A stretch of DNA of 64,000 nt from an uncultured Bacteroidales bacterium (GTDB lineage Bacteria > Bacteroidota > Bacteroidia > Bacteroidales > Porphyromonadaceae). Position 1 is the first letter of the stretch; each line of letters starts with the position of its first letter. A program made the translations under genes and the position numbers. The stretch is taken from contig CABTZX010000001.1 of assembly GCA_902489445.1 (NCBI GenBank), positions 38,606 through 102,605 on the forward strand, given 5' to 3'. Below the pieces are notes generated by a model. The model had not been told where the DNA came from and ran no database searches. It saw only the letters and a list, made by a program, of their open reading frames with translations. Positions 16,344 through 62,123 of this stretch are shown piece after piece.

Positions 16344-16354
16344 GGCGAATGCGC

Positions 16355-23472: not shown

Positions 23473-23560
23473 GAAAAAGGTATATACCTATCAATGAAGA
23501 TGTATATACCTTTCGAACGAGATGTATATACCTTTCGTTTGAAAACTATATACCTTTTTA
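23473..23560. repeat. palindromic-box repeat array, 4 copies
   Basis: gaaaaaggtatatacctatc / gaagatgtatatacctttcg / cgagatgtatatacctttcg / gaaaactatatacctttt. Confidence 0.85.
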
Positions 23561-25853: not shown

Positions 25854-26466
25854 GGTACCTTACTACCTAATATTTTGTTACTTTCAATTAGCTCTTTCCT
25901 GCATTTACCAAGGAATGTGCCGGCATGCCATAGGCTCTGATTTGCGCTTATAGGTATGCTTTTGGGTGCCTATTCCCTGCAAATGCGCTGCAAGTTACCA
26001 AATTATTCTCAATGACACAACAACTGCGTAATAATTGACACAATGCTACATTTTATTACCCATCCTGCGTGCTATTTGCTAAGACGTTCCTTTGCACATG
26101 TAAACTATGAAGAATGACTAAACGCATCTATTCCCATCTCTTGTGACTGATCTTATTAGTGATAAATAAGAAAGAGGGTATTGTGTCAATTATTTGTTAT
26201 CCGTATTTGATAGATGATATTCATCATTAAAGGAATGCCTCCTTTTCGTCTAACTGTAGCAATGAGGCCTATGCGAAAAGGGTCGGTAAGATATACTCAC
26301 AATACCCCAATTTTTGATGGACAGCTTCCTCATAAAAGATGATTTCTATATTTCTATCGTTTGCACGATGGTGCGGATTCATAGCAAAAAAACAAATTTC
26401 CGAGAATAGGAGTGATCAAATAATAGAAACAAACTTAATACTGCTTTTACATACAATAGTTATTGA

Positions 26467-26474
26467 TAACTTTG
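26467..26474 (+). promoter_or_regulatory. candidate -7 element TAACTTTG upstream of the giant ORF
   Basis: Matches TAnnTTTG, about 36 nt upstream of the ATG at 26510. Confidence 0.25.
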
Positions 26475-26509
26475 GGCAAGAAATGTTAGGGGTGTAGTGT
26501 GACATAGTT

Positions 26510-32500: not shown

Positions 32501-35206
32501 TCTTCTATGGGTACTGCTATTATGCTTCCTGCTGAAATTACTACTATCACAGGTTCAGGATTTGGCATTGATGAATTACAATTAATGCTTCCTGAGTTTG
32601 ATATTATTGAATATAACAAAGGAAAGGCAAGAGCTGCATATAAAGAGCAATATAAACTCAGCGCAAGAGATAAGTCACTAGCAACTAACTCAGATATACC
32701 TAGTTTTGAAGATTGGTTTGAGGAGAATAAAGAAGATTTCAAATACAATAAACCTAAGTTCTCTAAAGTAAAATATGATTTCTCTAAGTCTCCCAAAGAG
32801 AATGGTACTAGAGCTAGAAATAATCTTTACTTAGATTTAGTACGTAGTGTACTTACTAATTCTGATACTGCTGATAAGATATTTAAAGGAGTTACTCCTA
32901 CAGAACATCATAGAGTAGGTAGAATTAATACTATACTTTTAAATGCTACTAGAAAAGAAATAGCTGAAGCTTTAGGATGTAGAGAATCAGAAGCTGTAAA
33001 GAAGTTATTACAAGTAGATGAGAGTACAGCTACTAACTTAGCAAAGAAATTAAGTCCTAAGATGGATCCACTATCACCTATATCTCAATTAGTTTCTCAC
33101 CAAGCTAATATGGTAGGACAAAAGATGATTGGGGTATATGCAATTAATCATGTGCAGAATGCCATTCTTCAATATGCTGAAGATACTGCCTTCACTCATC
33201 CTTTACTTCTAAATGGTAGATCAAGGAACAAACTAACTGAAATGTTAGATAGTAGTGGTGGTGCTAGAAACTTTATTACCAGGAACATAGCAGGGTATCT
33301 TTCTATGGCAGTGGATAATAGTAAGGAACAAATGCTTGCTACTCATAATCAGAATAACTTCACTTGTGGTGTCACTATGGCTCTCATAAGAGTGGGTTAT
33401 CAACCTAAGGAAGTAGCTCTATTACTGCAACAGCCTATCGTAAGAAGAATGACTGATGCATACTCTAGCAATGAATATGGAGAATATGCATCAGGAAAAG
33501 ATGTAATAAGTAATGTAATAGAAGATCTACAGAAAAAGATTTTAAGCATAGATCCCAGCTTTTCTTTTACAGGTATGACAGGTGAGTCTTTATCTGCATG
33601 GAATACAGCTGGTGCGTACTCAATGGAAAGGCTTGCGAATAATATAGTTCAGGATACAGAAAGAAGAAAAGCACATATAAAAGGAGAAGATCTAAATTCT
33701 TTAGTAGATCAATATAAAGTAGCTTTACTTTTCAGGAACTTATATTCTAAAGGAGAAGAACTTTCAAACTTTGTAAATAGAACTAGACCTGATCAAATAA
33801 AAAATGCAGCAGGACCTACTATAGCTCAAACACAAGAAAATGAAGCTAAGTATGTAGATGCTTATAGAAAATCTCAACCTGTAAAGAGAGGTGATGTGAT
33901 AGTTACTCCTCCTGTAGCTATTACTGGAGCTAATATATTTAGCATAACAGATAATATAGAAAGTATTACTGAGGATGAGCTAAGAAAAATGTCTATGGAA
34001 TCTTCTATACCCTATCTACAAGCTCAGTTCTTGTGTGGTATACAAGGTGCTAAAAAGTTCTATGGTAAGTTCTTTCCATACTATAATGAGAATATCATTG
34101 CAGCAAAGGATAAAGTACTTAGTCTAGCTAAATCTAATCATATTAGTGCTAAAGAAGTAAATGATATTTATCAAGAACTTAGTACTTATGTATTATCAGG
34201 TGCAGAGTTCTTGGCAGGAGATACAGCTTTAATGGGTGATAAAAGATTCTTGAATGGTTATGAAGAAGTAAAGGATTACTACATAAATGAATTTCCTGAT
34301 GACTTTCAAGCTCTCTTAAAAGAGGCAGAAAAGGATGAAAATTCAGACCTGAAGAGCAACTTTTTTATAGATAATCTTACTGTAGCTTTTAATAGAAAAG
34401 TCAACTCAAAAGTCATTGAATTAAATACAGAAGGTAAGATGACTAGAGAAACAAGGGAATCTATACAAAGAGATTGGGAAGATCTACTTTATTCAAGTAA
34501 TCCTAAGTATGTAAAACTAGCTCAAGCTCTATTTACCTATAGTTACTTTAGAAGTGGATTAGCTTATACACCTAAGGGGTTTGGTCACTTAGCACCTTCC
34601 TCTATAAAAACTAGTGTTCCTGGTTTTGTGGATGCAATTAAATTATTAGATGATAAGAATTTAAACTTTGATGAGTTTGCCGAACAGTTTATCATTAATC
34701 ATAGAAATAATAACAAATTAGTTGCTAATGCCTATAGCTTAGATAAAAGAGAGTTCATCAACACTGTTAATGGTAAAAATGAAATAAAGACTGAGCTTTT
34801 GTTTGACACTTCCGGAGAAAATAGTGGGAAGAGATACAAGTCTATCATAAAAGAGAGATATTATTCAGGGGGAAAGGTACGGTATCTATATTCTCCGTTT
34901 ATAAAGAAGACTATAAATAGTAGAGATTTTGTTTATACACTTACAGAGTATACTGATAATACAGTGAAATATAGATTAGTACAGAATCTTGGTATGCCAT
35001 CTGTGTTTAAAGAATATAGCTTTGGGAAAAACTACGATAAAATAGACAGTAGTCTTATAGCTAATATTAATAATACTGACCTCTCTTGGAATAGACGTAC
35101 TATGAGAACCATAGATGTTTTACGTAAAAGTAGTGGAATGAAGGTATATGGCTATTATGTAAAAGAAGATGTGGCTGCAGTAGTAGAGAATAGTCAAAAA
35201 GAATAA
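26510..35206 (+). CDS. giant hypothetical protein (2898 aa), cytoplasmic-type, horizontally acquired
   Basis: 8.7-kb ORF with no stop codon in an AT-rich context, which is essentially impossible by chance. No signal peptide or TM segment. Lys/Glu/Asn-rich, with a coiled-coil stretch around residue 1750. No Walker A, DPPY/NPPY, DxDGD, DEAD/H or polymerase motifs found by eye. Confidence 0.85.
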   Translation: MWRFNENIKEIRAKAERDFTNRVFSTIAPFYNTKITAGNLKEIRTKVEDDFTRRANHVAGLLGINLIGITTNIENFGLEKGKTAAEAMANLSYTFELEGPSEKTALFASLVNDLGYEPQETVITSKVVNSAEEADAVQITYPLGNKSRKETLELINKLGIENYSIDPRTNVITVTVFNQKNGKLTLTAEEAEKQRTLSEELYGKERSGWKCSAKFLKSDYLNTRVRREIYARELERDGNRGKQQDIRLHKKLKAGLKETTTSLQDTSRQRGSQFFGEHDAISSNIVVVNESNSGEENSITRRNTEKEIKENARISIPLGKSIGDIISGRRTAITIERNNATKRDFYILKDIEAGQIFSIKDNSGKTVFVRATKKLHKVKREGVGDEWAERNFGDTREREIFATKDNREFSEVEFEYVGDKIDALLNKDKILEEIKSIFERALDNGSRDFRLDFASGISDPDVINRVVEYINSVADDFGCIPFNVIFPENLNTGKLNITAQEETESDTTTNSSVSIEQRRKLNQTFDPKRRKARANLIARYFSNYLDAKVAKFDKRVQEALTSDTVSEEDKQELRAFLATLEATGSKRLEVLRRIGPKKILEKIRNSLNKTLNDTLSGNREKIIEGKKKNALRKNPNLTEEQLEADANNFIKNIVEKYPAIIENFTALAEEAIPMINKREQITINEDSVLSYINSQESMFQEEFNEDGTEDIVDMEEQPKDHFLSDFRTTSSQETMSMRVRKRLGEIIKINPDGTPVLDDMYMGVYLNEDEVYSTLKRDLSSMVTSEDMIPLLEESAKTKPWVKQVIQTVERDLLFKTQLYHNMRSDFQEYWVQEKSKESKGFNTLPINRKSGIWHMLESWKNNVEGDNVLTTTNTNDKYGSIYDNNGNIIKENIKKAKTSFLNIRRILRGIKDINELDKNFYRDVTNLLKSFGINVGIDTVEQTIKVNKPEEVYAGISPLVIITDVVEKDNITTTNNFYKKFSTAYSNIAKFFAPAMGSVMEDSARQNGKNYQSYVAPSYLGKLMKSIKDKNTEEGTRFLDENYKAFGWFYNKKADFFFSDWIDKLYKNEIFNREKGMRFRDLIAHKTVLNQDDKNYVDWGKKDVILSLLTEFQKADVDGTAWYYVPLFSDAPSADFIRFVKYGDEVGDFKEGDKPYKEAIKEKLRGVAMQEFERIVLVKERDAIRNSETATAEEKERVGAIDNYDIKRDKNGNIVKKGGAEFKFFPQFNEWGVFDAISDFLEDPNNSGEYPSKLVDRFVERYLEEGLDNALEVWKNEQVFELDEYGGYKNFDISTELDTDTLTDILNSLSTDLYDVRYGPFVELSTEDIDILSKVYGIYDDFNKYVIFNKNKIDDRVVNKYINDFRTAVKELPNSEVFDAIRKDSIELSELSPLVKFLRNYYYNNALATSQIIQLTNTDLAYFKDMTDFYKRNKQNHAPSLRLDTSAVNPFTGEKVGRKVERAITIKDEYIPSTGVEDIRKILTERGVSKTEIDFICSQFRNVNVTDAQSYRSLDSYRAVKCMVGDWTQQMETAYNNILNDRWTATDMMTVFNTLKPYVYTQNSVDSGVAGGGKIKVPIQHKNSEFLLLATYNLVSGALGRAKKLKILDQFMRDNQIDVVHFESVVKVGKQGAIDVNQFDENNLDGFREYLEKAIRTEDGNYNPQVVHEISYEDYGIQMETGQHIVDTNNLVGTQVQRLIGGDISESAVLELDQVDDLLLSDMGDDEVIPTLGVTAGSLRAQSGISVEQFREIKELRDYARHAKNLYEDYADLQYKKGEKIDQNKLDQLKSEYETAKEKYEAKRKSTKSGLSKKQWHTLFNALMVENIIQGYNKVDKLFSDKKSISDVLKRQINSSPRYSRDLLDACSLDENGEFLIPLVDPTNSDRVQALMASIMRKEITQQKIKGGALFQASSFGLTDELNIIYEGEGENKRIKEFECYMPAYSREFFEPFMNSKTHELDISQLPDELKEIVGYRIPTEDKYSMMPLKIKGFLPSSMGTAIMLPAEITTITGSGFGIDELQLMLPEFDIIEYNKGKARAAYKEQYKLSARDKSLATNSDIPSFEDWFEENKEDFKYNKPKFSKVKYDFSKSPKENGTRARNNLYLDLVRSVLTNSDTADKIFKGVTPTEHHRVGRINTILLNATRKEIAEALGCRESEAVKKLLQVDESTATNLAKKLSPKMDPLSPISQLVSHQANMVGQKMIGVYAINHVQNAILQYAEDTAFTHPLLLNGRSRNKLTEMLDSSGGARNFITRNIAGYLSMAVDNSKEQMLATHNQNNFTCGVTMALIRVGYQPKEVALLLQQPIVRRMTDAYSSNEYGEYASGKDVISNVIEDLQKKILSIDPSFSFTGMTGESLSAWNTAGAYSMERLANNIVQDTERRKAHIKGEDLNSLVDQYKVALLFRNLYSKGEELSNFVNRTRPDQIKNAAGPTIAQTQENEAKYVDAYRKSQPVKRGDVIVTPPVAITGANIFSITDNIESITEDELRKMSMESSIPYLQAQFLCGIQGAKKFYGKFFPYYNENIIAAKDKVLSLAKSNHISAKEVNDIYQELSTYVLSGAEFLAGDTALMGDKRFLNGYEEVKDYYINEFPDDFQALLKEAEKDENSDLKSNFFIDNLTVAFNRKVNSKVIELNTEGKMTRETRESIQRDWEDLLYSSNPKYVKLAQALFTYSYFRSGLAYTPKGFGHLAPSSIKTSVPGFVDAIKLLDDKNLNFDEFAEQFIINHRNNNKLVANAYSLDKREFINTVNGKNEIKTELLFDTSGENSGKRYKSIIKERYYSGGKVRYLYSPFIKKTINSRDFVYTLTEYTDNTVKYRLVQNLGMPSVFKEYSFGKNYDKIDSSLIANINNTDLSWNRRTMRTIDVLRKSSGMKVYGYYVKEDVAAVVENSQKE

Positions 35207-35793
35207 GCAGAGTACATCAGATGATATTAATACCTCTAAAGCAAGGAGACCCCAATTGTCCAAAATAACACCAACTGGTGTATATAATAGGATAGGCGGT
35301 TCAAAGAGTAATTCTACCCTTAGTGATAAAGATTAGAAAAACTCTGGATGGACTATGAAGGAACTTAATAGCTTTGATGAAGCAAAACTAAGATGTCTGC
35401 TGAAGAAGATATAGATGTAGCCTTTATGGTAAAATCGAAAGAAAAGATAGAAAATGCTGAAGGTAACTTGGCTTGTGATTAATTGATAAATAAGAATGTG
35501 GGATTAAGTTGTGCAATAATATCCAGAGTAAAAAAACAGACTTAGAAGATCAGACGTATAAAGTAACCTATGGGCTTCCAATTTATTCAAAGAATATAGA
35601 TTGGGAGTTAGTTACAAAAACTATTCAGTTCCTCCAATTTAGTGGAGAAATATAAATGTGAGTATAACGAGGTGTAAGCATATTTCTGACTTTCGGGGAA
35701 TCTTTTCCTCTCATCTTAACAATAAAGTATCTAATGGGAGCGAAATAAGTATTATATTTGTGGACAGATATACGTAAATCCATTGGTGGCAAT

Positions 35794-36240
35794 ATGAAAA
35801 AAGTCTATAGATCTGTGCGTAGCCTTCTCTCTACAGGCGCCTCCTTGCTTTTAGGATGGTTTGGTTTTTCCGGTTGTCTCATTATAGGTGGTGCTGAGTA
35901 CGGTACTCCTACGGTTAATTATGAGTTCAAGGTGCACGTAAAGGATCAGAACGCAAAACCGGTTCCCGGTCTACAGGTATCTGTTTCTGAAACATATTAT
36001 CAGGAAAAGCCACTCACCGATGCAGATGGAAATGTGCAGTTGAACGGTAGATATACCGGATTTTACGGAGATCAAAAGGTTGGCTTGGGTATACGCGACG
36101 TTGATGGCGAACAGAATGGTGTGGTAGCGGATACGCTGATCAACGTGGATGTGAAGGAAAGTGACTTTGTAAGCAAAGGAAGAGGCTGGAATAAAGGCAA
36201 GATCGTAAAGGATATAACTCTTGAAGTTAAACGGAAATAG
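35794..36240 (+). CDS. putative lipoprotein with a carboxypeptidase-regulatory-like beta-sandwich, paired with the radical SAM gene
   Basis: Signal peptide plus lipobox (GWFGFSGC). The Met at 35794 is the likely start. GC content is host-like. Confidence 0.55.
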   Translation: MKKVYRSVRSLLSTGASLLLGWFGFSGCLIIGGAEYGTPTVNYEFKVHVKDQNAKPVPGLQVSVSETYYQEKPLTDADGNVQLNGRYTGFYGDQKVGLGIRDVDGEQNGVVADTLINVDVKESDFVSKGRGWNKGKIVKDITLEVKRK

Positions 36241-36265
36241 CTATAGACAAATTGGTTCAAATATC

Positions 36266-36526
36266 ATGAAGCGTAGTAGCATTTCTTTTCTCGGAAATAT
36301 AGTGGTGGCGGTAGCGCTCGTGCTCATCGGGTGCTTGGGATTTATGAGCTGCAAGTCACGCACATTTCGTTCGGAGAAAAGAGATGAACAAAATGTCCCA
36401 TCCGATTCGACAACTTTCAGAAAACCACGACCGATACACGGAGGCGTGGTAGTAGCGATGTACGGAACTCCCTATACTCGTTTTGAAGCAAAGAAGGTTC
36501 CTCGTCCAGAAGAAGCTGAAGAATAA
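36266..36526 (+). CDS. small putative lipoprotein (86 aa)
   Basis: Signal peptide plus lipobox (VLIGCLGFMSC) and a charged C-terminal tail. Lies between the first lipoprotein and the radical SAM gene. Confidence 0.4.
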   Translation: MKRSSISFLGNIVVAVALVLIGCLGFMSCKSRTFRSEKRDEQNVPSDSTTFRKPRPIHGGVVVAMYGTPYTRFEAKKVPRPEEAEE

Positions 36527-36556
36527 GCGGATACTGAGATTTTCCGGCAAACTGAT

Positions 36557-37693
36557 ATGATGCATCGCAAGCATTCCTCTATGGGTAAAAAGCTACTTCG
36601 TCCGTCGCTCAAACAGCGATTGGCACTGAACTTGTACCGCGTGGTTCGCGATGAAAATATACATCAGCATCCGATGAATACGCTCTTTTGGGAGTGTACC
36701 CTGCGGTGTAATCTGCATTGCGCGCACTGTGGAAGTGATTGTCGCGCTGATAGCGGCGTAGCGGAGCTTTCTGTTCCCGAATTCATTCGCATCATCGATC
36801 GGTTAACTCCCCATGTCAATCCCAATCAACTTTTGGTGATTTTCACCGGTGGAGAGGCGTTGGTGCGGCAAGATATCGAGGAAGCCGGACTGGCACTCTA
36901 CCATCGCGGTTATCCGTGGGGCATTGTGACCAATGGGATGCTTTTGAGTGCTGAGCGTTTGGAAAAGCTACGAAGTGCCGGGCTCCATACCGCAACTGTG
37001 AGCTTGGACGGCTTTGCCGAAGCGCATAATAGGCTACGAGGTCATCCGCTAAGCTATGAGCGCGCTTGGAATGCCATACAACTGCTCACGAAAGCGGAAG
37101 ACATTGTGTGGGACGTGGTTACCTGCGTTAATCCGATGAATTTCGATTCACTTCCCGCACTGCGCCAACATCTAGTTAATGCCGGAGTGAAGTGCTGGAG
37201 GCTCTTTTCTATTTTTCCCGTAGGGCGAGCCGCTGAAAATGAGCAACTCCGTCTTTCGGACAGCCAACTCTACCAATTAATGCAATTCATTGTAGCCACT
37301 AACCGGGAGGGGCAAATTGAGGCGCAGTATGGGTGCGAGGGCTATTTGGGAGCCTTTGAGGGAAAGAGTCGCAAGCAGTTTTACCAATGTCGTGCCGGTG
37401 TGAATATAGCCTCCATTCTTTGTGATGGTTCCATCAGTGCCTGCCCAAGCATACGCTTCAATTATAAGCAGGGCAATGTGCATCATGATGACCTTTGGAC
37501 CGTGTGGCAAAACGGATTTACCGCTTTTCGCGACCGATCATGGGCTAAGAGCGGTCCCTGCGCATCCTGCAAAAGCTGGAAGTTTTGTTTGGGAAATGGC
37601 ATGCATCTTCGGGATGACGACGGAAAGTTATTGGTATGCCATCTCAGTCGACTCGAAGCCGGAGCTGAAGCCCTGCACGCCTCCAAGGAGTAA
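36557..37693 (+). CDS. radical SAM enzyme with a C-terminal SPASM (additional 4Fe-4S) domain
   Basis: CNLHCAHC (CxxxCxxC) radical-SAM cluster motif near the N-terminus and a Cys-rich C-terminus (CPSIRF...CASCKSWKFCLGNG...C). This is the architecture of anSME and peptide-maturase-type SPASM enzymes. Confidence 0.85.
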   Translation: MMHRKHSSMGKKLLRPSLKQRLALNLYRVVRDENIHQHPMNTLFWECTLRCNLHCAHCGSDCRADSGVAELSVPEFIRIIDRLTPHVNPNQLLVIFTGGEALVRQDIEEAGLALYHRGYPWGIVTNGMLLSAERLEKLRSAGLHTATVSLDGFAEAHNRLRGHPLSYERAWNAIQLLTKAEDIVWDVVTCVNPMNFDSLPALRQHLVNAGVKCWRLFSIFPVGRAAENEQLRLSDSQLYQLMQFIVATNREGQIEAQYGCEGYLGAFEGKSRKQFYQCRAGVNIASILCDGSISACPSIRFNYKQGNVHHDDLWTVWQNGFTAFRDRSWAKSGPCASCKSWKFCLGNGMHLRDDDGKLLVCHLSRLEAGAEALHASKE

Positions 37694-38292
37694 TACGCGT
37701 TGTTTCTCTCTATCAACCACATTGATTAGCCATTTCAATTCTTTCGCTCCTCCTACTTATTATATAGGTGGAAGCGTGATCTTTTACCGAGAAAAGAACG
37801 CTCTTTATGCGAAGAAATAGCAGAGAACTTCGCTACCCCCGTATGCACGCTGTTACGCCATGGTACATTCCTCAAATAAGGCGGATTATAGCGCGCAGTT
37901 TAGTGCAGAATATACTGGTATGAGACGCAGTTATATGACCAAATGCTACACGTAATAAAAAAAGACAGGCCAATCGATCGCTCAATCAGCCTGCCGAGGG
38001 CTTTACATCAACGGCGGGTGAACCAATACCATCTTCTGCCCTCACCGGCAAAGATAGCTAACTCCTATCACTTTTGTCCATCGCCATAGTGGCAGACTAA
38101 CTACCAATCGCTTTGAGAGCTTAGGCAACGGATACAATACAGCTAACATTTCGCCATATATCGTGGCTAAGGTTGCGCTTAATCATACCAGGTTCTGCTG
38201 CGGCAGGACACGTCTTGGCCAACTGCGATGCGGGTCGCCTTGGCTCGTCCGAGGCTTCCTGTCTCTATTCTTGCTCGTAGTTTTACCCTCCT

Positions 38293-38690
38293 CAATCCAT
38301 ACGCTCTCGCTCATCAATCCATAGATGCTCACTTCTTAATCCGTACGCTCTTGCTCCTTTATACATACGTCCTCAATCCTTTCTACGTACTTCCTCGATT
38401 CTTTATACGTAGCTTCATAATCTTTTGTACGTACCTTCTCTATAAATCATTAAAAGGATTTATATAAACCGTTTAAATGATTTATACGCGTACTTTAAAG
38501 GATTTGTACAAATCATTTAAAGAATTTATCGAGTGTCACCGGATAAAAAATCGACAACCTACGCATCACCGGTCATCAGCCTACGTATAATGAATCGTCA
38601 AACTACGCATCACTGGTCAAGATCTACATATTAATGGTCATCAATCACGAATAAGCAGGCGGCGAAAACGTACAAATACGCATAGAGATA
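38293..38690. repeat. MITE-like repeat element copy A, containing a 22-23-bp minisatellite (core TACGTAC / ATCC(A/G)TAC) and a palindromic AAAGGATTTATATAAAC core
   Basis: About seven tandem units of 22-23 bp (38293-38455) are followed by aaatcattaaaaggatttatataaaccgtttaaatgattta. A 160-bp stretch is homologous to 44105-44265, and the ACGTACAAATAC end motif is shared. Confidence 0.7.
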
Positions 38691-38827
38691 TTCATAATGG
38701 GGTGTCGGGGGGACTACATGGGGGACGTTATCGCTCGCTAAAACGTTCGACTACTTCCGTACCGTACAAACAAAAGCCGACGGATTACTTTATCCGCCGG
38801 CTTGAATTGGTCTGGGTGGTGGGGTAG

Positions 38828-39244
38828 CTACTTGCGGAGATTATCCCGAATCTCGCGGAGCAACTTCACCTCTTCGGATGGTTCGGGTGCAGGTTCCTGA
38901 GCGGCTTCTTTCTTACGTCTAAAACTATTGATCCCCTTAATCAGTAGAAAGATAACCAATGCGATGATAAAGAAATCCAGTAAGGCTTGGATGAAACTTC
39001 CTATCGTTAATGCTACTTCAGGACGGATAATTTCGTCACCCTCCATAATACCGGGACGGAGAATCCATTTTAGATCGGCAAAATTGCCTTTGTCCGTAAG
39101 TAACGTAATTGGGGGCATAATCACATCCTTCACCAAGGAATCAACTATTTTGCCGAACGCACCGCCGATGATGATCCCGACAGCCATATCCATCACACTT
39201 CCTTTGAGTGCGAACTCTTTGAACTCTTGAATAAACTTAGCCAT
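38828..39244 (-). CDS. mscL: large-conductance mechanosensitive channel
   Basis: 138 aa. MAKFIQEFKEFALKGSVMDMAVGIIIGGAFGKIV is the canonical MscL N-terminus/TM1. Confidence 0.9.
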   Translation of the reverse strand: MAKFIQEFKEFALKGSVMDMAVGIIIGGAFGKIVDSLVKDVIMPPITLLTDKGNFADLKWILRPGIMEGDEIIRPEVALTIGSFIQALLDFFIIALVIFLLIKGINSFRRKKEAAQEPAPEPSEEVKLLREIRDNLRK

Positions 39245-39571
39245 ACGATCTTGTTTTGCTAACTAACTGATGTTTCTTCTTACGTGGCAAAAGTACGCTC
39301 TTTTTGGGAAGATAACAAGGAAAATAATCGGCAAAACGCTGTTTTAGCCACTTTTTCACGCGTTAAGGGGTCTAAAGTTGCGTTAGAAAAAAAATAATGA
39401 TTACTTTTGGTGCAGGTACCGAAAAGTAGTGGTTGTAGGTTGCGCTTTGGCTCAGGTGAAGCACGGCTAAAACAAAGAAATTGGGCAACCGAAAAAGAAG
39501 GAAAGAATGAAAAAGAGAGGTACACAAAATTATACAGACGAGAGTTTAACTACACAATAAGAAGAATCGTT

Positions 39572-39841
39572 ATGAACAAAACAGAATTCATTGCTCGCGT
39601 AGCTGAAGAAGCCGGGCTGACAAAAGCGCAAGCTCAGAAGGCTGTAGCTGCATTCAGCGACGTAATTGCAGACCAAATGCGTAAGGGAGAAAAAGTTGCT
39701 ATCCTTGGATTCGGCACTTTCTCTGTTACGGAAAGACAGGCACGTATGGGTATCAATCCTCGCACCAAAAAGCAAATCAAGATACCTGCACGCAAGAGTG
39801 TTAAATTCAAACCGGGTTCCGGTCTTGATCTCACGAAGTAG
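39572..39841 (+). CDS. DNA-binding protein HU
   Basis: 90 aa: MNKTEFIARVAEEAGLTKAQAQKAV...GFGTFSVTERQARMGINPRT. The ORF-track start at 39407 is an upstream in-frame extension. Confidence 0.9.
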   Translation: MNKTEFIARVAEEAGLTKAQAQKAVAAFSDVIADQMRKGEKVAILGFGTFSVTERQARMGINPRTKKQIKIPARKSVKFKPGSGLDLTK

Positions 39842-40134
39842 TAAGGTTTTCTCCCATTAAAAGTAGAAGAAAGCATTACGCTACGTAAGAGACGCTCGTT
39901 GCACAGTGTGCGTCTCGGTAAAGAAGAAGCCTGTTCCGAACTTACGTACTATTCGGGGCAGGCTTCCCATTTTATTATATGCTTTTAGAGGCTTTCAGAG
40001 GCAATATGAGCGTCTGTATAGCATTTATTTTGTAGCTTTGCGGTACCAAGTGGCTGACATTGCCCAAAAGGGAGGCGAGAGACGCCCGCGGACGAGATAG
40101 AATGAAGAAATAAAGAAAAAGAGCAACATAGCTG

Positions 40135-40776
40135 ATGAAGACTTTAATTCGAGTATTGATTGGAGTAGCCGTTGTCGTGATGGCTTACTTGTGCGTTATG
40201 AGCATCTATACGCCGGTTCAGTTCGACCGCGAACAAAAGAAACGCGAACAGGTGATAGAAGAACGGCTTAAGGAGCTGACCCAGTATCAGTTGGCATACA
40301 AAAGTGTACACGGCACCTTTGCCAGTGGAGATCAATTGGTTGACTTCCTGCAAAACGGCCGTATCTATTACGTAAATGCAGAGGGCGATTACACCGACGC
40401 CATGCGTGAAAAAGGTCTTTCGGAAGCAGAAGCTGCTCGTCAAGGCTTGATTCAGCGCGATACGGTATATGTTAGTGCCAAGGACTCACTCCTACGTCAG
40501 GGCGTTGATCCCGCAGAATTGATCAAAGTTCCCGGAATGTCCGACGATATGATTGATATTCAGGCATCTGTGGTCAATCAGTATATCGGTACCGATACCA
40601 TTCCTGTATCCGTTTTCATGATGGCCGTACCGATGGATGTTTATATGCGCGGAATGGACCCGCAGTTGGTTGCAGCGAAGAAGGATGAAGCCGTAGCTCG
40701 CAACAACGGAAAGGGTTATCCCGGCTTGGTAATTGGTTCTCTCGAAGAACTTAAAACAACGGGTAACTGGGAGTAA
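40135..40776 (+). CDS. hypothetical membrane-anchored protein
   Basis: N-terminal TM anchor (LIRVLIGVAVVVMAYLCVM) followed by a soluble domain of about 190 aa. No recognisable motif. Confidence 0.5.
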   Translation: MKTLIRVLIGVAVVVMAYLCVMSIYTPVQFDREQKKREQVIEERLKELTQYQLAYKSVHGTFASGDQLVDFLQNGRIYYVNAEGDYTDAMREKGLSEAEAARQGLIQRDTVYVSAKDSLLRQGVDPAELIKVPGMSDDMIDIQASVVNQYIGTDTIPVSVFMMAVPMDVYMRGMDPQLVAAKKDEAVARNNGKGYPGLVIGSLEELKTTGNWE

Positions 40777-40782
40777 CTCTCT

Positions 40783-41637
40783 ATGCCTCTTCCTCCGTTA
40801 CCGGTAGTGCCGTTCAGTGAGGAAAGGGCAACTACAATGAGCCTCGCCATCCGATTTTTTTCGGATAGCGTGGCTTATTCTATTACAGACGCTACCGGAT
40901 ACACACAGCTTGCCGGTCAGCACAAATTCCCTTTGCAGCTTTGGGAAGAGCGTGGAGTGGAATTCTTTTCGAACATATTGGATCAAAGTCCTTTCCTTGT
41001 TTTTCCCTATAAATCTGTACAGATAACCTATTCTCCCGCTGCGTATGCGCTGATTCCTCCCGGAATGACGGCGGAAGATGGTAACGATGAGGCGTGGTTA
41101 CTTCCTTGGGCGTTGATGTTGGATGGCTCCGCTTACGTAGATACGTACACAATTGAGAGCGGTCAGCCCTCAGTCGTGGTGGCTTGGCAGCGTGAGTTGT
41201 ATCTTTTCCTAAAGCGCACGTATCCAGCGGCATCTATCGAGCCGATTACACTGTATGCAATACGAGAGGCACTTTGTCGCTCCAGAAGGGAAAGAACGCG
41301 TGTATTAAATCTACTTTTGGACGGAAAAACGCTCGAATTGGTTGCTGTAAAAGAGGGACAAATCGATATCGCTAATCGTTTTGCCATAGGAGTAGCTCCG
41401 CAGGAAAAAGAGAGCTATGCCACCGCTGTTCTATATTTTGTGGCAGCATATCTTCGTTCCGCCCAAGAGCTTCATCCCGCAAACGGGCAGGACGTTATAA
41501 CGTTATATTATCTCCTGCACCAATGGGGTTTCGATAATGACCCTTTGCCACAGCTTAATCAGGAGCTTGAGCATATGGGGTATGACTTATCCGTCATTCC
41601 CATTTCAGGCTTATTTTTCAAAGAATTGTGCGAATAA
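40783..41637 (+). CDS. hypothetical protein (possibly a DUF3822-like Bacteroidetes family that often sits next to rsmD)
   Basis: 284-aa ORF with good coding character, overlapping the rsmD start by 10 nt. The family assignment is from memory only. Confidence 0.45.
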   Translation: MPLPPLPVVPFSEERATTMSLAIRFFSDSVAYSITDATGYTQLAGQHKFPLQLWEERGVEFFSNILDQSPFLVFPYKSVQITYSPAAYALIPPGMTAEDGNDEAWLLPWALMLDGSAYVDTYTIESGQPSVVVAWQRELYLFLKRTYPAASIEPITLYAIREALCRSRRERTRVLNLLLDGKTLELVAVKEGQIDIANRFAIGVAPQEKESYATAVLYFVAAYLRSAQELHPANGQDVITLYYLLHQWGFDNDPLPQLNQELEHMGYDLSVIPISGLFFKELCE

Positions 41638-42188
41638 TAGGCGGAATATTGGCCGGCAGACGTTTTGACGTCAATCAGAAGCTCAAGCTTCGTCCCACTA
41701 CCGATATGGCAAAGGAAGCGCTCTTTAATATGCTTTCTGCTCGTTTTGAATTCGAAGGAAAGCGTGTTTTGGATCTTTTTGCGGGAACAGGCGGCATCGG
41801 TATAGAATTCGCTTCGCGAGGGGCTGCCCATGTGCTCTTTGTCGAAAAGGTACCGCGTCACGTAGCCGGAATAAGAAAGTTGGTTATGGATACCGGATTG
41901 GACACGACAATCGAGGTGCGTGTAGCCGATGTGCTGCGCTTTCTCCGATCCGAAAATGCTATCCCTGATGAGCATTTTGACTTCATTTTTGCCGATCCAC
42001 CCTATAATTTACCCGAAATACCGGCACTCCCCGAACAAATACTTTGTTCCGGATTGCTTGCTCCCACCGGTATTTTGATTCTGGAGCATCCCAAGGAGTA
42101 CGATTTTTCTGCCAATTCGCAGTTTATCCTGCATCGTTCCTATAGCGCCGTTAACTTCAGCCTCTTCTCCCAAAGCGCCCCGAGCTAA
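41628..42188 (+). CDS. rsmD: 16S rRNA (guanine966-N2)-methyltransferase
   Basis: SAM motif LDLFAGTGGIGIE and the catalytic FADPPY motif. Typical RsmD length of 186 aa. Confidence 0.85.
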   Translation: MRIIGGILAGRRFDVNQKLKLRPTTDMAKEALFNMLSARFEFEGKRVLDLFAGTGGIGIEFASRGAAHVLFVEKVPRHVAGIRKLVMDTGLDTTIEVRVADVLRFLRSENAIPDEHFDFIFADPPYNLPEIPALPEQILCSGLLAPTGILILEHPKEYDFSANSQFILHRSYSAVNFSLFSQSAPS

Positions 42189-42260
42189 TCGGCGCAGCCA
42201 CCATATTGTTTCCTAAACTTCTTGTTGAGTTTGGCTACACGTTCTATCGGCGTAGGTACG

Positions 42261-42366
42261 TTGGTATAGATGCATCGGGCGATAGGTATAGATGTTTCCA
42301 TCAAAAGGTATAGATGTTTCGATCGATAGGTATATACGTCTTGCGCAAAAGGTATATGAGTTTCAT
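42261..42366. repeat. palindromic-box repeat array, 5 copies (GGTATAGATG variant)
   Basis: ttggtatagatgcatcg / gataggtatagatgtttcc / caaaaggtatagatgtttcg / gataggtatatacgtcttg / caaaaggtatatgagtttca. Confidence 0.85.
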
Positions 42367-42525
42367 CGGATGGCGAGCAACCTTGTCGTGAAGCGTATCT
42401 TTCCTTGACGGATTGTCTTGCGTCGTGCGTCTACGGATATAGGGGCTGTTTGGCGGTACGTTTCCGTCAATCGTCTGTTTCTGGTGCTTGGATGGGTAGG
42501 ATAGTTCCAATTATTCTTCGTAATA

Positions 42526-42903
42526 TTGTCGCCGAATCCGCTATTGAAGCGTGAAGTTAGAGGAATGAGTGAGCAGATAGCAAGAAAGAACGAGCCTTCT
42601 TCGGATAGTATTCTCTCGATAAGAGGATTGCACTTTGCCTATCAGAGCAAAGCCATACTGCGTGGTGTGGATCTGGAGATCCCTGCCGGATCTATCTTCG
42701 GATACCTCGGAAAGAATGGTGCCGGCAAGTATCTGCCCTTTACGACGCTTACCTATTTGGCGTCTCCCCATACGGTGGCGGAGCTTACTGCCTTTTCGGA
42801 AAGAGACGTCATAAACCTATCGCTCTTAGGCATCTCGCTCTTTATCGGCTACCGATGCTTTACCCCCGAAAAGAGATCGTTACTTCGCAACCACATTCAC
42901 TAA
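42526..42903 (+). pseudogene. truncated ABC-transporter ATP-binding protein (N-terminal fragment only)
   Basis: ILSIRGLHFAYQSKAILRGVDLEIPAGSIFGYLGKNGAGK is an ABC ATPase N-terminus through Walker A. After GAGK the sequence no longer matches (no Q-loop, signature or Walker B) and it terminates. Confidence 0.5.
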
Positions 42904-42945
42904 CCTCATCGCGTAAAGTTTCCGTTTAATCAACACATCCTTGCA

Positions 42946-43839
42946 ATGAAGAAGCTGCTTTATCCTAATCTGTATAAGGAACTGATTACCCTCTTGAGGG
43001 GCGTCAGCCAAGTGTTTCTCATTAATAAAGCTCTCTCGGGCGCGCTAATTCTTATCGGGATTGCCTGTAACTCGTGGCGGCAGGCACTGATGGCTCTGCT
43101 GGGAGCGGCTGTTGCCCGTATGACCGCTTCTCTTTGTGGCTATGAGCGTCGGGAGATTGAGGATGGTCTTTACGGATTTAACGGTGTTTTGGTGGGCATT
43201 GCCGTAGGGGTTTATTGGGCGATCGGTTGGCTTTCGCTTCTCTTCGTAATAGTGGGAGCCGCAGCGTCAACCCCTATAGCATACTGCTTTCGGAAGCGAA
43301 CTCGTTTGCCCGGATTAACCGCGCCTTTCATTATCGCCGTGTGGGCGCTACTTCTTATCAGTGCTGTTGCTCCGGAAGCTATGGGACGATTGACCTCCAC
43401 TGCACCTTCGGCAGAGCCGTATCCCTACCTCCGAGTGCCCGCCGATAGCTTTGGACAGGTGATGTTTCAGGCTAATGCGCTCTCCGGATTGCTCTTCTTT
43501 GTGGCGATTCTCTCGGTATCGCGTCGCAAAGCACTATATGCGCTGGCGGCGGCTTTGTTGCCGATGCTCCTGATTCCTATAGTGCCGCAACCGATGTGGC
43601 GTGAGGGACTGCTAGGCTACAACGCAGTGCTGTGTGCGCTCTATTGGGCAGACGTAGCGCATCGTCCGTTGCTTCGAGCCTTGCTCTCGGTAGTGTTGTC
43701 GGTTGCCGTGCAGCTGCTGGCTATGCATCTGCATGCCATTCCGCTGACCGCCCCCTTTGTCCTCTCCGTTTGGGCGGTGTGGCTGTGGAAAGAGCCCTCA
43801 TCCCCTTCAACCGCGCCATCAGCGCCCGCATTAGGATAA
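42946..43839 (+). CDS. urea transporter (UT) family membrane protein
   Basis: Two-repeat membrane protein with LTAPF motifs in each half (GLTAPFIIAVWALL / PLTAPFVLSVWAVW) and GLYGFNGVLVG, as in UT/Yut-family channels. Confidence 0.6.
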   Translation: MKKLLYPNLYKELITLLRGVSQVFLINKALSGALILIGIACNSWRQALMALLGAAVARMTASLCGYERREIEDGLYGFNGVLVGIAVGVYWAIGWLSLLFVIVGAAASTPIAYCFRKRTRLPGLTAPFIIAVWALLLISAVAPEAMGRLTSTAPSAEPYPYLRVPADSFGQVMFQANALSGLLFFVAILSVSRRKALYALAAALLPMLLIPIVPQPMWREGLLGYNAVLCALYWADVAHRPLLRALLSVVLSVAVQLLAMHLHAIPLTAPFVLSVWAVWLWKEPSSPSTAPSAPALG

Positions 43840-44104
43840 TCTTGAACGGGCGGAGCGCATCTATACAAACGTAAGTGCGCGTTACACACTGCTTTCTCGC
43901 ACAGCTCCAAACATAAGAGAACGCATCTACGCAGACGTGTAGGCATATCTTTTGTGCAACCTTTACCATCTTCCTTTTACTTTCGACAACCGCATCTGAC
44001 TTTTCTTTCCCGTCATCCTATTCTTACTGACCACTTATCCGCACGTGCATAACTCTTTACTCGTACTTAACCGGCCACTCAAGCGTTTCTTATCAAATTC
44101 TTCT

Positions 44105-44290
44105 ACGTACCTTTTCAATCATTTATACGTACTTCCGCAACCATTTGTATATACCTCCTCAATAAATCCTTTAAAGGATTTATATAAACTGCTTAAAGAA
44201 TTTATACGCGTACTTAAAATGATTCGTACAAATTCTTTAAACAATTTGTCGAATAGGTACGTACAAATACTTGAGCTTGTACGTATAAAC
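44105..44290. repeat. MITE-like repeat element copy B (same orientation as copy A)
   Basis: ttctacgtaccttttcaatcatttatacgtac...aaatcctttaaaggatttatataaactgcttaaagaatttatacgcgtacttaaaatgattcgtacaaat aligns with 38380-38540 at about 75-80% identity. Confidence 0.7.
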
Positions 44291-44642
44291 AATTGCGAAA
44301 GTACGATGCCGCGAGCGAAAAGAAAGGACGTACAGAGCAAAAGAGAGCGAAGCTCTGCTCCCGCTAACCCGAGCCCTCTGAAAAGGGAAATGGCTACTAA
44401 CGTTAGCGAAAGAAATATCTCCCGAAACGAATAACTAGACACGAACAACTAATGTTATGTAGGTATGATATGAAAGAGTCCTTCTTTGTCGCTTAATAAT
44501 GGTAGTAAATTATGCAAGGGAGGCACAAGATCAATTCAATGTTACGTTTCCACACAAAAGAACCAATCGCTATCTGAGCGGGTAAAAGGGTACCTTTGCA
44601 GTGGGGAGAACGAGTTGCCACTTGAGGATAAGGAAGTGAAAG

Positions 44643-45890
44643 ATGAATACATCCGGTAAATTTCGTAGAAAACGATATCTCTCGCCGGCATTAACTATCG
44701 TCATTCTGTTTGGCGTGATTAGCATGCTCGGCGATTTAGTGCACGAATCTGCACGAAGCGTAAACGGGCAGTACCTCAGTTTGGTTGGACTAACCGCTAC
44801 GCAAGTGGGGTTGGTGTTCGGAATAGGGGAGTTCTTGGGGTACGCATTACGGCTCCTTTTTGGATCGCTTCTTGATAGAAGTGGGAGGTATTGGCTGTTT
44901 CTTTTTATTGGTTATGGTGTCCATTTGGTTATTCCACTTATGGGGGTAACCACGGCTTGGGGCTGGTTGTATACATTTATTCTGCTTGAACGTGTAGGAA
45001 AAGCATTGCGAAGCCCTGCCAAGGATACTCTCCTTTCTGCTGTGGCTGAGGGCGAAATCGGTTTGGGATACGCCTTTGGCATCCAGGAAGCCTTAGACCA
45101 GTTAGGAGCTTTTCTTGGACCTTTGCTCTTTACTGCGCTTTTTTCCATTTTAGACCGAAGTACTATTGATGCATTTCAGATAGGCTATCGGTTGCTTCTG
45201 ATCCCGTTTCTCCTCTTAATGGTTGTACTCATTTGGGTACATCAACGCTTTGTTCGTGCAGATCTTACGCCTAAAGTTGAGGTGAATGCCCCACCGGTAC
45301 GATTACAACCTATATTTTGGATCTACTCGGCATTTACTTTCTTTGCCGCATTCGGACTCATCAACTTTAGCATAGTGGGCTATCACCTCAAAGTGAAGCA
45401 GATTGTTCCCGATAGTGTGATTCCTATTCTTTATGCTGTGGCTATGGCTGTGGATGCGCTTGTGGCGATCGCTATCGGCAAATTATACGACCGAATGAAG
45501 CGCAAAACAGGGCGTAAATCAGCGGGAATATTGGTTTTGCTGATAGTTCCGGTTCTGACGGCATTCCTACCGATCCTTACCTTTTCGCACACAAATACGT
45601 TTATTTGGATTGGAATGGTGCTTATGGGCATTGTTTTAGGCGTGCACGAAACGGTAATGCGATCGGCAATTGCGGATATTACGCCGTTCCGAAAGCGCGG
45701 AATTGGGTTTGGTTTGTTCAATACGATCTATGGATTAGCCCTGCTTTTCGGTTCCCTTCTAATGGGAAGGCTGTACGATCTGCAGAAAACATCCCTTATC
45801 GCAATAATAACTGTCCTTTTGGAACTTTTCGCCATCATACTCTATTTTGTTCTTTATAAACGAATTAAGACTGAGAAAGCGCCCTCCTGA
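44643..45890 (+). CDS. MFS transporter
   Basis: 415 aa with 12 predicted TM segments. The loop motifs LLDRSGRYW and MGRLYD are MFS-like. Confidence 0.8.
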   Translation: MNTSGKFRRKRYLSPALTIVILFGVISMLGDLVHESARSVNGQYLSLVGLTATQVGLVFGIGEFLGYALRLLFGSLLDRSGRYWLFLFIGYGVHLVIPLMGVTTAWGWLYTFILLERVGKALRSPAKDTLLSAVAEGEIGLGYAFGIQEALDQLGAFLGPLLFTALFSILDRSTIDAFQIGYRLLLIPFLLLMVVLIWVHQRFVRADLTPKVEVNAPPVRLQPIFWIYSAFTFFAAFGLINFSIVGYHLKVKQIVPDSVIPILYAVAMAVDALVAIAIGKLYDRMKRKTGRKSAGILVLLIVPVLTAFLPILTFSHTNTFIWIGMVLMGIVLGVHETVMRSAIADITPFRKRGIGFGLFNTIYGLALLFGSLLMGRLYDLQKTSLIAIITVLLELFAIILYFVLYKRIKTEKAPS

Positions 45891-46213
45891 GCTCCTTTCC
45901 TCAGAGGATTTTTACCTCTATAAACGAAGGAATGAGAGAAAGTTGGCATTGATGGGATTGGATCATTATTTGGAGTGGAGAAATAGGTAGTGCTAATTTG
46001 CATGCCGATGGATTGATTCCTTCTGATTTACAGATGCTTTCTTAAGAGCTGTTCAGTACTATTGGCGAAAAGAGCACTATTGAAACGCTGAGCTGTGCAT
46101 AGGTTTGGTTAGTGTTATGGTCGTTTTAATCGACATTTATGCTTGTTTGTATCGATTCTTTTCGTACCTTTGCACCACGCTTCCGGACAAGTGTATGCGT
46201 CGGAGCGTACGAT

Positions 46214-46287
46214 GGCGAGATAGCTCAGCTGGTTAGAGCGCATGATTCATAATCATGAGGTCGAGGGTTCAAGTCCCTCTCTCGCTA
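46214..46287 (+). tRNA. tRNA with a CAU anticodon (elongator Met or lysidine-modified Ile2)
   Basis: Cloverleaf: acceptor GGCGAGA/TCTCGCT, D-arm TAGCTCAGCTGGTTAGAGC, anticodon loop tTCATAa, T-arm GGTTCAAGTCC. No encoded CCA. The anticodon stem lacks the three G-C pairs of an initiator. Confidence 0.8.
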
Positions 46288-46824
46288 CTTCACTATAGAT
46301 TTTTTGTCGCTTACAGAGAAGTTTTTATCCTCTTGTTTCTTAGTTGGGTGGTATCTGTGTAGCAAAGAACTATGGTAGATCTCGGCATTATTCTTATTAT
46401 TCTCACTACTAGGATAGGGTTGTGCTGTTGTTTCCATCCAAAAAGTATGCTATGGAAATGGGGAACTAACGTACAAGAGAGGGAGTTTGAAGAAATAAAG
46501 GAATGGATGATATCGTAAATTATCAATGATAATGCTCCTATTCCCGCGCTGTATCAGTACGAGAAGTTCTTAATAGAATAGAAGATACTTCTCGGTTCGT
46601 ATATTTACACAGTAAACAACGAATAAGCTGCAGATGTGACTTATAATGTTGGATGTTGTTTGGTTGTATCCGATGTAAAGAAATACGAGTTCTCCGGTAA
46701 AAAAGAGGAACAAATGTAGAGCCCGAGTTCCAAATTAGGAGCTCGGGCTGCAATAACTCTATTAAGGATTCAACTAAAGCAAGACTTTGCGTTTGTTCGC
46801 AAGGTTCTGCCCGCGTTAAATGCT

Positions 46825-50222: not shown

Positions 50223-50308
50223 AAAAAGGTATATAGGTTTCAGTTGATAGGTATATAAGTTTCAGTTGATAGGTATATAGGTTTCACTCGGGAGGTATAC
50301 CTTTCGTG
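50223..50308. repeat. palindromic-box repeat array, 4 copies, in the divergent korD/lipoprotein promoter region
   Basis: aaaaaggtatataggtttcag / ttgataggtatataagtttcag / ttgataggtatataggtttcac / gggaggtatacctttcg. Confidence 0.85.
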
Positions 50309-61946: not shown

Positions 61947-62036
61947 ACTGAAACTTATATACGTTTCAAGTGATAGGTATATACCTCTGAAACGAAAGGT
62001 ATATAAGTTTTGTAGCAAATGTATATACCTTTTGTC
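61947..62036. repeat. palindromic-box repeat array, 4 copies, between tRNA-Pro and leuS
   Basis: gaaacttatatacgtttcaa / gataggtatatacctctgaaa / cgaaaggtatataagttttg / caaatgtatatacctttt. Confidence 0.85.
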
Positions 62037-62123
62037 CCGTGAAAATAGACCCTATGGACGATGAATGGCAACGGTTTATACCCAATGAGCCTTATTTCTC
62101 CTTTAGTTGTGCGGCAAAATAGC

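Follow-up and report, generated by a model that had tools for sequence, protein, structure and literature searches.

Modular intergenic repeats bearing a minisatellite form a known class, which includes BrickBuilt and PgRS of Porphyromonas gingivalis, BOX and clusters of repetitive extragenic palindromes (REPs). BOX of Streptococcus pneumoniae is a multi-copy, non-coding and hairpin-forming element composed of boxA, n copies of the 45-nt boxB and boxC; it is not known to have a transposase. BrickBuilt (Klein et al. 2015, PMC4596501) is an intergenic transposable element of the miniature inverted-repeat kind (MITE) present in about 10–20 copies, many of them partial: its 23-nt unit, AGACCATAGTATCCTCTCATATG, forms a spacer-less internal minisatellite whose unit number varies among strains, and its leader and tail, both non-repetitive, end in IS5-like terminal inverted repeats (TIRs; GAGACCTTTGCA / TGCAAAGGTCTC). 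MITEPgRS and MITE464 of the same species carry internal tandem direct repeats (41 nt), repetitive flanking segments and IS5-like TIRs (PMC4596501). REPs and bacterial interspersed mosaic elements (BIMEs) are short extragenic palindromes with GTAG or CGTC tags and REP-associated tyrosine transposases (RAYTs), which often occur in tandem clusters and have neither TIRs nor target-site duplications (TSDs) (PMC3733652). Here we analyze two intergenic repeats, A and B, in a 64,000-nt stretch of contig CABTZX010000001.1 from an uncultured bacterium of the Bacteroidales (hereafter the window), which a first-pass annotation had described as direct copies of a MITE-like element bracketing a 5.5-kb block of genes. 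A and B probably represent diverged copies of one dispersed repeat, non-coding and lineage-specific, that is made of 22-bp modules and belongs to an uncultured Porphyromonas-like Bacteroidia species. The best-supported placement is that of an undescribed lineage-specific family within the class outlined above; it is a familiar kind of repeat, with no new mechanism.

The repeat has in common with BrickBuilt a related host, an intergenic position, multiple copies and a spacer-less minisatellite of about 22–23 nt that varies among strains. The BrickBuilt unit is, however, 23 nt long and unrelated in sequence, whereas the units here are 22 nt; in addition, what is conserved here is a central palindromic core of four units, the flanks are themselves 22-bp arrays, and there are no IS5-like TIRs. 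Indeed, AGACCATAGTATCCTCTCATATG had no match in the window at up to three mismatches, and its best rotated match in A, B and the mscL–HU region (14–15 of 23 positions) equaled the null obtained with shuffled queries. Note that the neighbors of BrickBuilt_14 are a minus-strand gene for a 'membrane protein' and a plus-strand gene for a DNA-binding protein of PF00216 (PMC4596501), a pair similar to mscL and HU at 38828–39841 of the window; the mscL–HU spacer contains no 22/23-nt array and no BrickBuilt similarity, and the likeness is one of gene kind.

The other systems share fewer features with the repeat. MITEPgRS and MITE464, compared by description and by TIR search only, also have internal direct repeats and repetitive flanks, but their repeats are 41 nt long and their TIRs IS5-like. 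BOX is likewise a modular intergenic repeat with a variable number of internal tandem modules; its sequence and host are, however, unrelated, boxB lies between distinct end modules, and it has neither a 22-bp quantization nor a central conserved palindrome. Generic arrays of the AAAGGTATATACCTTT type, described below, resemble tandem REP clusters, whereas REPs show neither a fixed 22-bp register nor an 88-bp composite core. The units contain palindromes, as do REPs with their 20–40-bp palindromes, and some include CTACGTAG, but they do not end in a consistent GTAG or CGTC tag; no RAYT gene was seen in the contigs analyzed. The arms change by whole units among strains as do variable-number tandem repeats (VNTRs), but a VNTR is a single locus, whereas the present arrays belong to a composite element that is palindromic and dispersed. 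The likeness to the P. gingivalis MITEs with minisatellites that the first-pass annotation had pointed out is one of intergenic position, multiple copies and variable unit number, and it extends neither to the BrickBuilt unit nor to the TIRs. We found no earlier description of the family in the literature searched.

The similarity between A and B, which lie 5.7 kb apart, is real and far beyond chance. With blastn, they align plus/plus over 152 nt at 80.3% identity (E=1.5e-37), as compared to 68% only for the plus/minus alignment; a repeat search paired 38381–38532 with 44101–44252 at 80%, gapless and in direct orientation (family D3). A 17-mer common to both, AAAGGATTTATATAAAC, has exact matches in the 64 kb at 38453 and 44173 only, the chance expectation with three mismatches permitted being about 0.38 matches. 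An nhmmer profile of the core also matches A and B only within the window (E=5e-33 and E=7.5e-35, respectively).

Outside the window, the core proved to be dispersed. The core pattern AAAGGATTTATATAAACNNNTTAAA, run on the GTDB representatives and on metagenome contigs, was found in a single representative, on a 1.1-kb contig from a metagenome-assembled genome (MAG) labeled 'uncultured Bacteroidia bacterium', and in 16 metagenome stretches, 12 of which are real elements and four chance coding matches. The core is therefore present in 12 metagenome copies and one MAG copy, which runs counter to its being confined to the two sites of the window. The family comprises at least six sequence types, i.e. 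at least four (C to F) beyond the orthologues of A and B, plus a second A-type copy (contig L023), and the 88-bp core occupies six or more other unrelated loci in related contigs. Types C to F and the second A-type copy have the same build: left units, a four-unit core and inverted right units. One metagenome, QWCE01, holds six copies on four contigs, two of which (633 and 343) are 97–98% identical to the window or its sister strains and thus belong to the window's species. The copies are 75–85% identical to one another. The core is their most conserved part, alignable across members at about 80% while the arms differ, and the outer ends are the least conserved. Mini-palindromes survive double changes between types, e.g. 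from CTACGTAG to CTTCGAAG.

Since B is closer to an E-type copy on contig L017 (83.8% identity) than to A (80.3%), A and B are not duplicates of each other, and the bracketing of the intervening genes appears coincidental; A also occurs without B nearby in other strains. The copies sit in convergent, tandem and divergent intergenic regions. All neighboring genes examined are of the housekeeping kind; they include mscL and the urea transporter gene in the window and, beside the other copies, genes for GrpE, an extracytoplasmic function (ECF) sigma factor, KsgA, FtsW, NamZ, a GH3 enzyme and an AspT-type permease. Neither the proteins of the window nor those next to the copies (about 40 flanking proteins scanned) include a transposase. 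The family is non-coding, because 22-bp indels disrupt any reading frame and because the open reading frames (ORFs) called across A vary from strain to strain. A phage or plasmid origin was considered and rejected, two scans of viral contigs having given a single chance coding match, as was a link to islands encoding giant proteins, the 2898-aa ORF beside A and the 2341-aa ORF beside a D-type copy being unrelated.

The modular architecture is apparent from several analyses. In A, Tandem Repeats Finder (TRF) reports period 22 at 38288–38369, 38355–38434 and 38444–38529; a 22-nt register print shows the periodicity from 38290 to about 38690 in A and from about 44056 to 44320 in B, where the lag-22 region seen by autocorrelation is 44052–44309. 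In the register print the units abut without spacers, so that the arrays are not of the CRISPR kind. The tandem units that the first-pass annotation had seen in front of the core are real, with a period of 22 rather than 22–23 bp, and the core, although self-complementary as noted there, is not separate from them: it consists of four such units itself. Each core unit is an 18-bp palindrome of type AAATCCTTTAAAGGATTT, and the links are 4-bp palindromes (TATA, ACGCGT, GTAC); as a result, symmetry centers follow one another every 11 bp over 88 bp, TTTAAA alternating with TATATA, ACGCGT and TGTACA.

Copy A starts about 100 bp to the left of the previously proposed start at 38293. Its leader, a non-periodic left end (38191–38289, plus strand), is delimited by the fact that homology with L003-type strains and with L023 starts at 38191 despite their differing left flanks, this sequence being common to three different left-hand contexts. 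There follow, on the plus strand, distal 22-bp units of the CTCAATCCATACGCTCTCG type, variable in number (38290–38354; TRF period 22), and a proximal arm of four 22-bp units with TACGTA-type mini-palindromes (38355–38443; TRF 38355–38434), which aligns with the left arm of B. The core, four AT-rich self-complementary units (38444–38531; overlapping palindromes I1–I3), is followed by an insert absent from B (38532–38660, plus strand). This insert of about 130 bp had been described as carrying three repeats; it is present and contains two 44-nt repeats, i.e. four times 22 nt (TRF 38549–38636, period 44, 2.0 copies), with two good CTACGCATCACYGGTCA motifs and one degenerate. A right remnant, ACGTACAAATAC (38661–38690, plus strand), matches the start of the right arm of B and has an exact 12-mer in common with 44270–44281.

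Copy B also exceeds the limits first given to it and spans about 44040 to 44320. It comprises a left arm of about five decaying 22-bp units (TACGTAC / GTATATAC; 44040–44163, plus strand; register print, lag 22), a core of four units (44164–44251; palindromes I5, I8 and I10), including the perfect 18-bp palindrome AAATCCTTTAAAGGATTT, and a right arm of GTACGTA units inverted relative to the left arm (44252–44320, plus strand). B is thus an imperfect palindrome of about 200 nt, with 79-nt arms (44106–44184 / 44227–44305) that are 73% complementary. Types C, D and E, like B, have long imperfect inverted arms, whereas A has none, its right arm being replaced by the two 44-nt repeats and its leader lacking an inverted partner; toward the outside the elements decay, and their ends differ from copy to copy.

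The internal 22-bp minisatellite claimed for the element is borne out by strain comparison. In an alignment of the A locus from 11 strains, for which contigs were picked for an identical MscL, the left arm of A has 7, 7, 12, 10, 9, 8, 8, 9, 8, 8 and 10 units, the changes occurring in whole 22-bp steps only; such a change in copy number by whole units between individuals, in tandem units of 10–100 bp, is what defines a minisatellite or VNTR. In one strain (L009), one 44-nt unit of the A insert is lost. Nucleotide diversity (pi) at A is 0.076 in the leader, which is about neutral, 0.012 in the core and about 0.036–0.037 in the adjoining segments and arm; the low value of the core was given no weight, as it falls in a low-diversity zone produced by picking contigs on MscL. 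At B, pi is 0.166 in the left arm, 0.046 in the core and 0.016 in the right arm, as compared to 0.06–0.067 at four-fold degenerate sites of the neighboring genes, so that the left arm is about 2.5 times as diverse as the neutral reference. The evidence for purifying selection on cores and generic arrays was equivocal: neither the B core nor the generic array is less diverse than the DNA beside it, and the A value is confounded.

We also looked at site occupancy. The A site is filled in all 11 aligned strains and in L018 and L020, and the B site in every contig that keeps the urea transporter (UT) gene (L001, L002, L005, L007, L008, L009 and L012); in L003-type strains, the whole UT–B region is missing. 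Wherever the A or B site itself is present in the strains compared, no empty site was found. As regards orthologous sites in sister species, the nearest non-self DUF3822 homologue is only 47% identical and lies on contigs shorter than 3 kb. As to the affinities of the host, the best PDB matches of the superoxide dismutase encoded in the window are 1UES and 1QNN, which we take to be the P. gingivalis enzyme.

Strain rearrangements whose breakpoints fall at the edges of the elements or inside the core point, at the level of sequence, to homologous recombination between copies. Four contigs from independent samples (L003, L004, L006 and L010; the L003 type) have only 38191–42203 in common with the window, this block being flanked by a DNA ligase gene on one side and by ExbD/TonB on the other, in the order ligase–A–mscL. 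One metagenome holds both EF-G...A–mscL (L020) and ligase–A'–KsgA (L023); a crossover inside the element would be expected to produce, as recombinant, the order ligase–A–mscL seen in L003. The C-type contigs L021 and L024 are identical over the element and its right flank and diverge exactly at the left end of the element. Finally, L008 keeps the left arm of B, has a different core and departs from the window in its right context from 44267 onward; its new right flank had no match among the loci compared, and the recombination partner of B was not found. Recombination between copies, as the first-pass annotation had anticipated, is thus seen in other strains, between members of the family; the particular event it had envisaged, excision or inversion of the block through A and B, is not, no A×B deletion or hybrid element being present among 16 strain contigs. 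L003-type strains additionally have 66-nt (3×22) tandem repeats between the ligase gene and A.

Taken together, these observations lead us to favor the following scenario. The whole copy would be built of 22-bp modules, with the AT-rich 88-bp core of four modules at its center and, on either side, module arrays carrying mini-palindromes of 6–8 bp (TACGTA, TTCGAA, GTATATAC); because these arrays are opposite in orientation on the two sides of the core, a complete copy is a 200–400-bp imperfect palindrome. From strain to strain, the arms gain and lose 22-bp units in whole steps, in the manner of a minisatellite subject to slippage or unequal exchange. The repeat probably spread in the past as a non-autonomous element, the copies later diverging in place to 75–85% identity. 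Its present-day effect would be mainly structural, through length polymorphism and the reshuffling of gene blocks by recombination between copies, and the A/B pair would not be a functional composite around the 5.5-kb block.

Several points weigh against this scenario. The A core is less diverse than both its neighbors, and the cores are alignable while the arms differ, which hints at constraint; a neutral or selfish element would not be predicted to show it, with the qualification that the A value is confounded and the B core is not clearly below neutral. The species also rearranges at element-free places (the 44563–46337 block and the 26293–37804 island described below), so that some of the coincidence between breakpoints and elements could be due to chance. 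The contigs used for comparison were assembled from short metagenome reads, a kind of assembly where repeats may cause chimeric joins, a concern countered by the recurrence of the L003-type arrangement in four independent samples, and copies were tallied across metagenome contigs rather than per genome. Lastly, neither an empty site nor a TSD, a terminal motif or a partner enzyme that would account for the spread was found among the strains and proteins compared.

Among the alternatives, a classical MITE, i.e. a deletion derivative of an insertion sequence (IS) moved in trans via its TIRs and of a BrickBuilt-like, IS5-like or Mu/Tn7-type miniature kind, deserves consideration, although we regard it as unlikely. 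Its appeal lies in the fact that the elements are small, non-coding, multi-copy and intergenic, with inverted arms and a long-hairpin fold. The ends of Tn7 and Mu carry 22-bp TnsB and MuA sites, which the arms of repeated 22-bp units may recall by analogy. An internal minisatellite is, moreover, a feature of BrickBuilt and PgRS of P. gingivalis (PMC4596501). However, the IS5-type TIR GAGACCTTTGCA / TGCAAAGGTCTC is absent from the ends of both A and B (loose matches to GAGACCTTTGCA, with two mismatches, number seven in the window vs 4.4 expected, and the nearest, at 44589, is the promoter region of a major facilitator superfamily (MFS) gene), and the BrickBuilt unit is not present. At the only sharply defined end, the left end of type C, the left flanks (...TTGTCAA and ...CCTTTAT) and the right flank (TTCGTAAG) show no direct repeat, this TSD test being weak because recombination between copies would scramble TSDs. 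The copies are only 75–85% alike, hence no recent transposition, and the roughly 40 flanking proteins scanned include no transposase. The element has its least conserved parts at the outer ends and its most conserved part at the center; such a conserved central core with variable, fuzzy ends is the opposite of a transposase-bound MITE. The term MITE-like, as first applied to the element, holds in part: copy number, minisatellite and inverted arms agree with it, whereas IS5-type TIRs, a TSD at the sharply defined end of type C and a nearby transposase were looked for and not found.

The 22-bp register is not restricted to A and B. By autocorrelation (lags 5–60), lag 22 is the strongest in the window by far, with its multiple 44 and only a weaker signal at lags 10 and 20 besides, and it marks eleven regions, all intergenic: A, B and nine others. 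Seven of the nine are arrays of the AAAGGTATATACCTTTCnnnnG unit (family D1), of the related GGTATATACC type and distinct from the A/B units, with a strict 22-bp period (3595–3692, 9263–9345, 20281–20367, 23475–23560, 42263–42365 (in wider limits, 42255–42365), 50228–50305 and 61950–62040). Such a generic array has four to five units, each a 16–20-bp palindrome, and similar arrays occur in five related contigs (L016, L017, L020, L023 and L029). The array at 42255–42365, of GGTATA(T/G)A units (TRF period 22), lies inside the bracketed block and is not an A/B copy; its unit number is constant in seven strains (pi=0.043), and the homology of L003-type strains to the window stops at 42203, just short of it. 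Other tandem repeats in the window and related contigs have periods of 44, 66 and 110, to which one 11-nt GATAC array is to be added, and the only exception to the 22-bp register is an unrelated 10-nt repeat at 15917–16003. From these eleven regions and the periods that are multiples of 22, A and B appear as a special case of a genome-wide habit rather than an isolated oddity.

Two further repeat regions were observed. Upstream of rseP (15459–16345), a 1.6-kb intergenic region is full of tandem repeats with periods of 22 (CTATAGACTTTCT), 65–66, 10 and 110; its segment 15665–15993 is homologous to the flanks of D-type copies (L013, L014, L025 and L026), and the region may be a decayed relative of A and B that lacks the core. 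In L003-type strains, between rsmD and ExbD (about 6510–6800 in L003), the generic array is replaced by about 26 tandem 11-nt units containing GATAC, followed 20 nt on by a -7 box, TATCTTTG.

This register raises the possibility of phased operator arrays, in which the 22-bp units, as 18–20-bp palindromes spaced by two helical turns, would bind a dimeric protein involved in regulation or nucleoid organization, with every dimer on the same face of the helix. Every core unit is indeed palindromic, e.g. the perfect 18-mer AAATCCTTTAAAGGATTT in B; arrays of different sequence have periods of 22, 44, 66 and 110 (plus the 11-nt GATAC array); mini-palindromes are kept through double changes (CTACGTAG to CTTCGAAG); the core is the best conserved part across copies; and four of the seven generic arrays lie 17–84 nt upstream of a Bacteroidetes-type -7 box (TAnnTTTG) preceding a gene. 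Against this, the copies occur in convergent, tandem and divergent contexts and are not consistently placed with respect to promoters (A is flanked by the 3' ends of two genes), the arms are hypervariable, and the B core and the generic array are no less diverse than the intergenic DNA around them. Multiples of 22 are equally expected of higher-order repeats derived from one ancestral 22-bp satellite, and no candidate for the binding protein emerged. We therefore consider operator arrays improbable. Rather doubtful, too, is the broader proposal that the core and the GGTATATACC arrays, which are present in about half of the long intergenic regions, are chromosome-wide phased operators of a lineage-specific dimeric protein; if it were true, two-turn-spaced arrays would organize the nucleoid or tune promoters, and the number of units would act as a heritable rheostat.

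An action of the element as RNA, be it as a hairpin terminator, an insulator, an RNase III target, a transcript stabilizer or a small-RNA gene, is more doubtful still in our judgment. B folds into a long hairpin, with z=-6 as DNA and, for the minus strand as RNA, z=-10 and -84 kcal/mol. When segments of the copies were compared (38373–38598 and 44093–44318 of the window, and L011, L014, L017 and L021), one strand folded better by 10–23 kcal/mol, with more G-U pairs, in most copies; the better strand is plus in type C and minus in A, B, D and E. In addition, two strong intrinsic terminators on the minus strand bracket A (38803–38774 and 37995–37964). However, RNAalifold yields a weak consensus only (-14 kcal/mol; covariation term -1.2; three compensatory pairs out of 36), and a left arm pairs equally well with the right arm of its own copy and with those of other copies, so that there is no copy-specific covariation. 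The more stable strand ignores the direction of the flanking genes (plus flanks and minus strand for B, minus flanks and plus strand for C), and the changes in arm length among strains would alter any defined structure. With Rfam 15 at the gathering score, only two tRNAs were recognized in the window, the elements giving sub-threshold matches to generic miRNA-precursor hairpins. A conserved RNA structure was rejected on these grounds (weak consensus, no copy-specific pairing, no Rfam family).

Two observations relate to these folds and to the surroundings of A. In the three informative cases, the favored strand and the local GC skew have opposite signs; a tie between fold strand and flanking transcription or GC skew was discarded, the cases being inconsistent or too few and the direction contrary to a simple deamination expectation. 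On the minus strand, at 37957–38056, a -7-box-like TATCTTTG (plus-strand CAAAGATA at 38049–38056) is followed about 50 nt further by the intrinsic terminator at 37995–37964 (14-bp stem, T7 tail), and the two delineate a possible small-RNA gene, a candidate judged by its signals, whose transcript would be about 85 nt long and devoid of a meaningful ORF, 140 nt downstream of A.

A local segmental duplication, or a composite that mobilizes or excises the 5.5-kb mscL-to-UT block, would fit the direct orientation, 5.7-kb spacing and 80% identity of A and B but is scarcely credible given that the core lies at six or more unrelated loci, that B is nearer to distant copies than to A, that the L003-type A-to-rsmD block stands in another context without UT or B, and that the 16 strain contigs include no A×B hybrid or deletion.

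As regards the gene setting, the window is ordinary chromosome, with genes for ParC/GyrA-like proteins, NadE, RseP, MutS2, PNPase, EF-G and 2-oxoacid:ferredoxin oxidoreductase. Pfam assigns to the bracketed genes MscL, HU, a hypothetical protein, DUF3822, RsmD (Cons_hypoth95), a weak ABC_tran fragment and the urea transporter. This agrees with the gene list first proposed, except that one of its two hypotheticals is a DUF3822 protein and that the ABC fragment is a deletion remnant: at 42721–42730, about 1.4 kb is missing from the window and most strains relative to L008, where an ABC ATPase of 312 aa and an ABC-2 permease of 270 aa are encoded intact, and the window ORF 42526–42903 is thus a fusion or deletion remnant. 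Outside the bracket, a radical-SAM/SPASM gene lies to the left and the MFS transporter gene to the right; A stands between convergent genes, and both flanks of B are on the plus strand.

Two further segments of the window have boundaries away from the elements. One, a block of 1.77 kb (44563–46337), comprises the MFS gene with its promoter and tRNA-Met, and is found in a different context in L029, L031 and L034, between 4HBT thioesterase and DUF695 genes at 99.5% identity; its breakpoints are not at an A/B-type element, one of them lying about 50 nt beyond the tRNA. The 11.5-kb segment 26293–37804 has a low GC content (34.7% vs 47.5% elsewhere) and contains the 2898-aa ORF, which has no Pfam match, two small ORFs and the radical-SAM/SPASM gene. 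It is missing in L020, where the junction shows a short TATGCGAA-type microhomology, and it resembles an island gained by horizontal transfer and placed 386 bp left of A.

The analysis adds an undescribed repeat family from a lineage that seems to inhabit oral or host-associated samples. It accounts for the breaks and the variation that short-read assemblies of this species show at the elements, several contigs ending within the B core. The 22-bp differences in unit number at A are usable as a strain-typing marker. In P. gingivalis, reshuffling of gene blocks via dispersed repeats has long been inferred; the rearrangements described here offer concrete cases of dispersed repeats as recombination substrates that reshuffle blocks of housekeeping genes between strains. 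Finally, the strict 11/22/44/66/110-bp quantization of nearly all intergenic tandem arrays in this genome provides a clean case for the study of higher-order repeat evolution in bacteria, and it would gain in importance should a binding protein be discovered.

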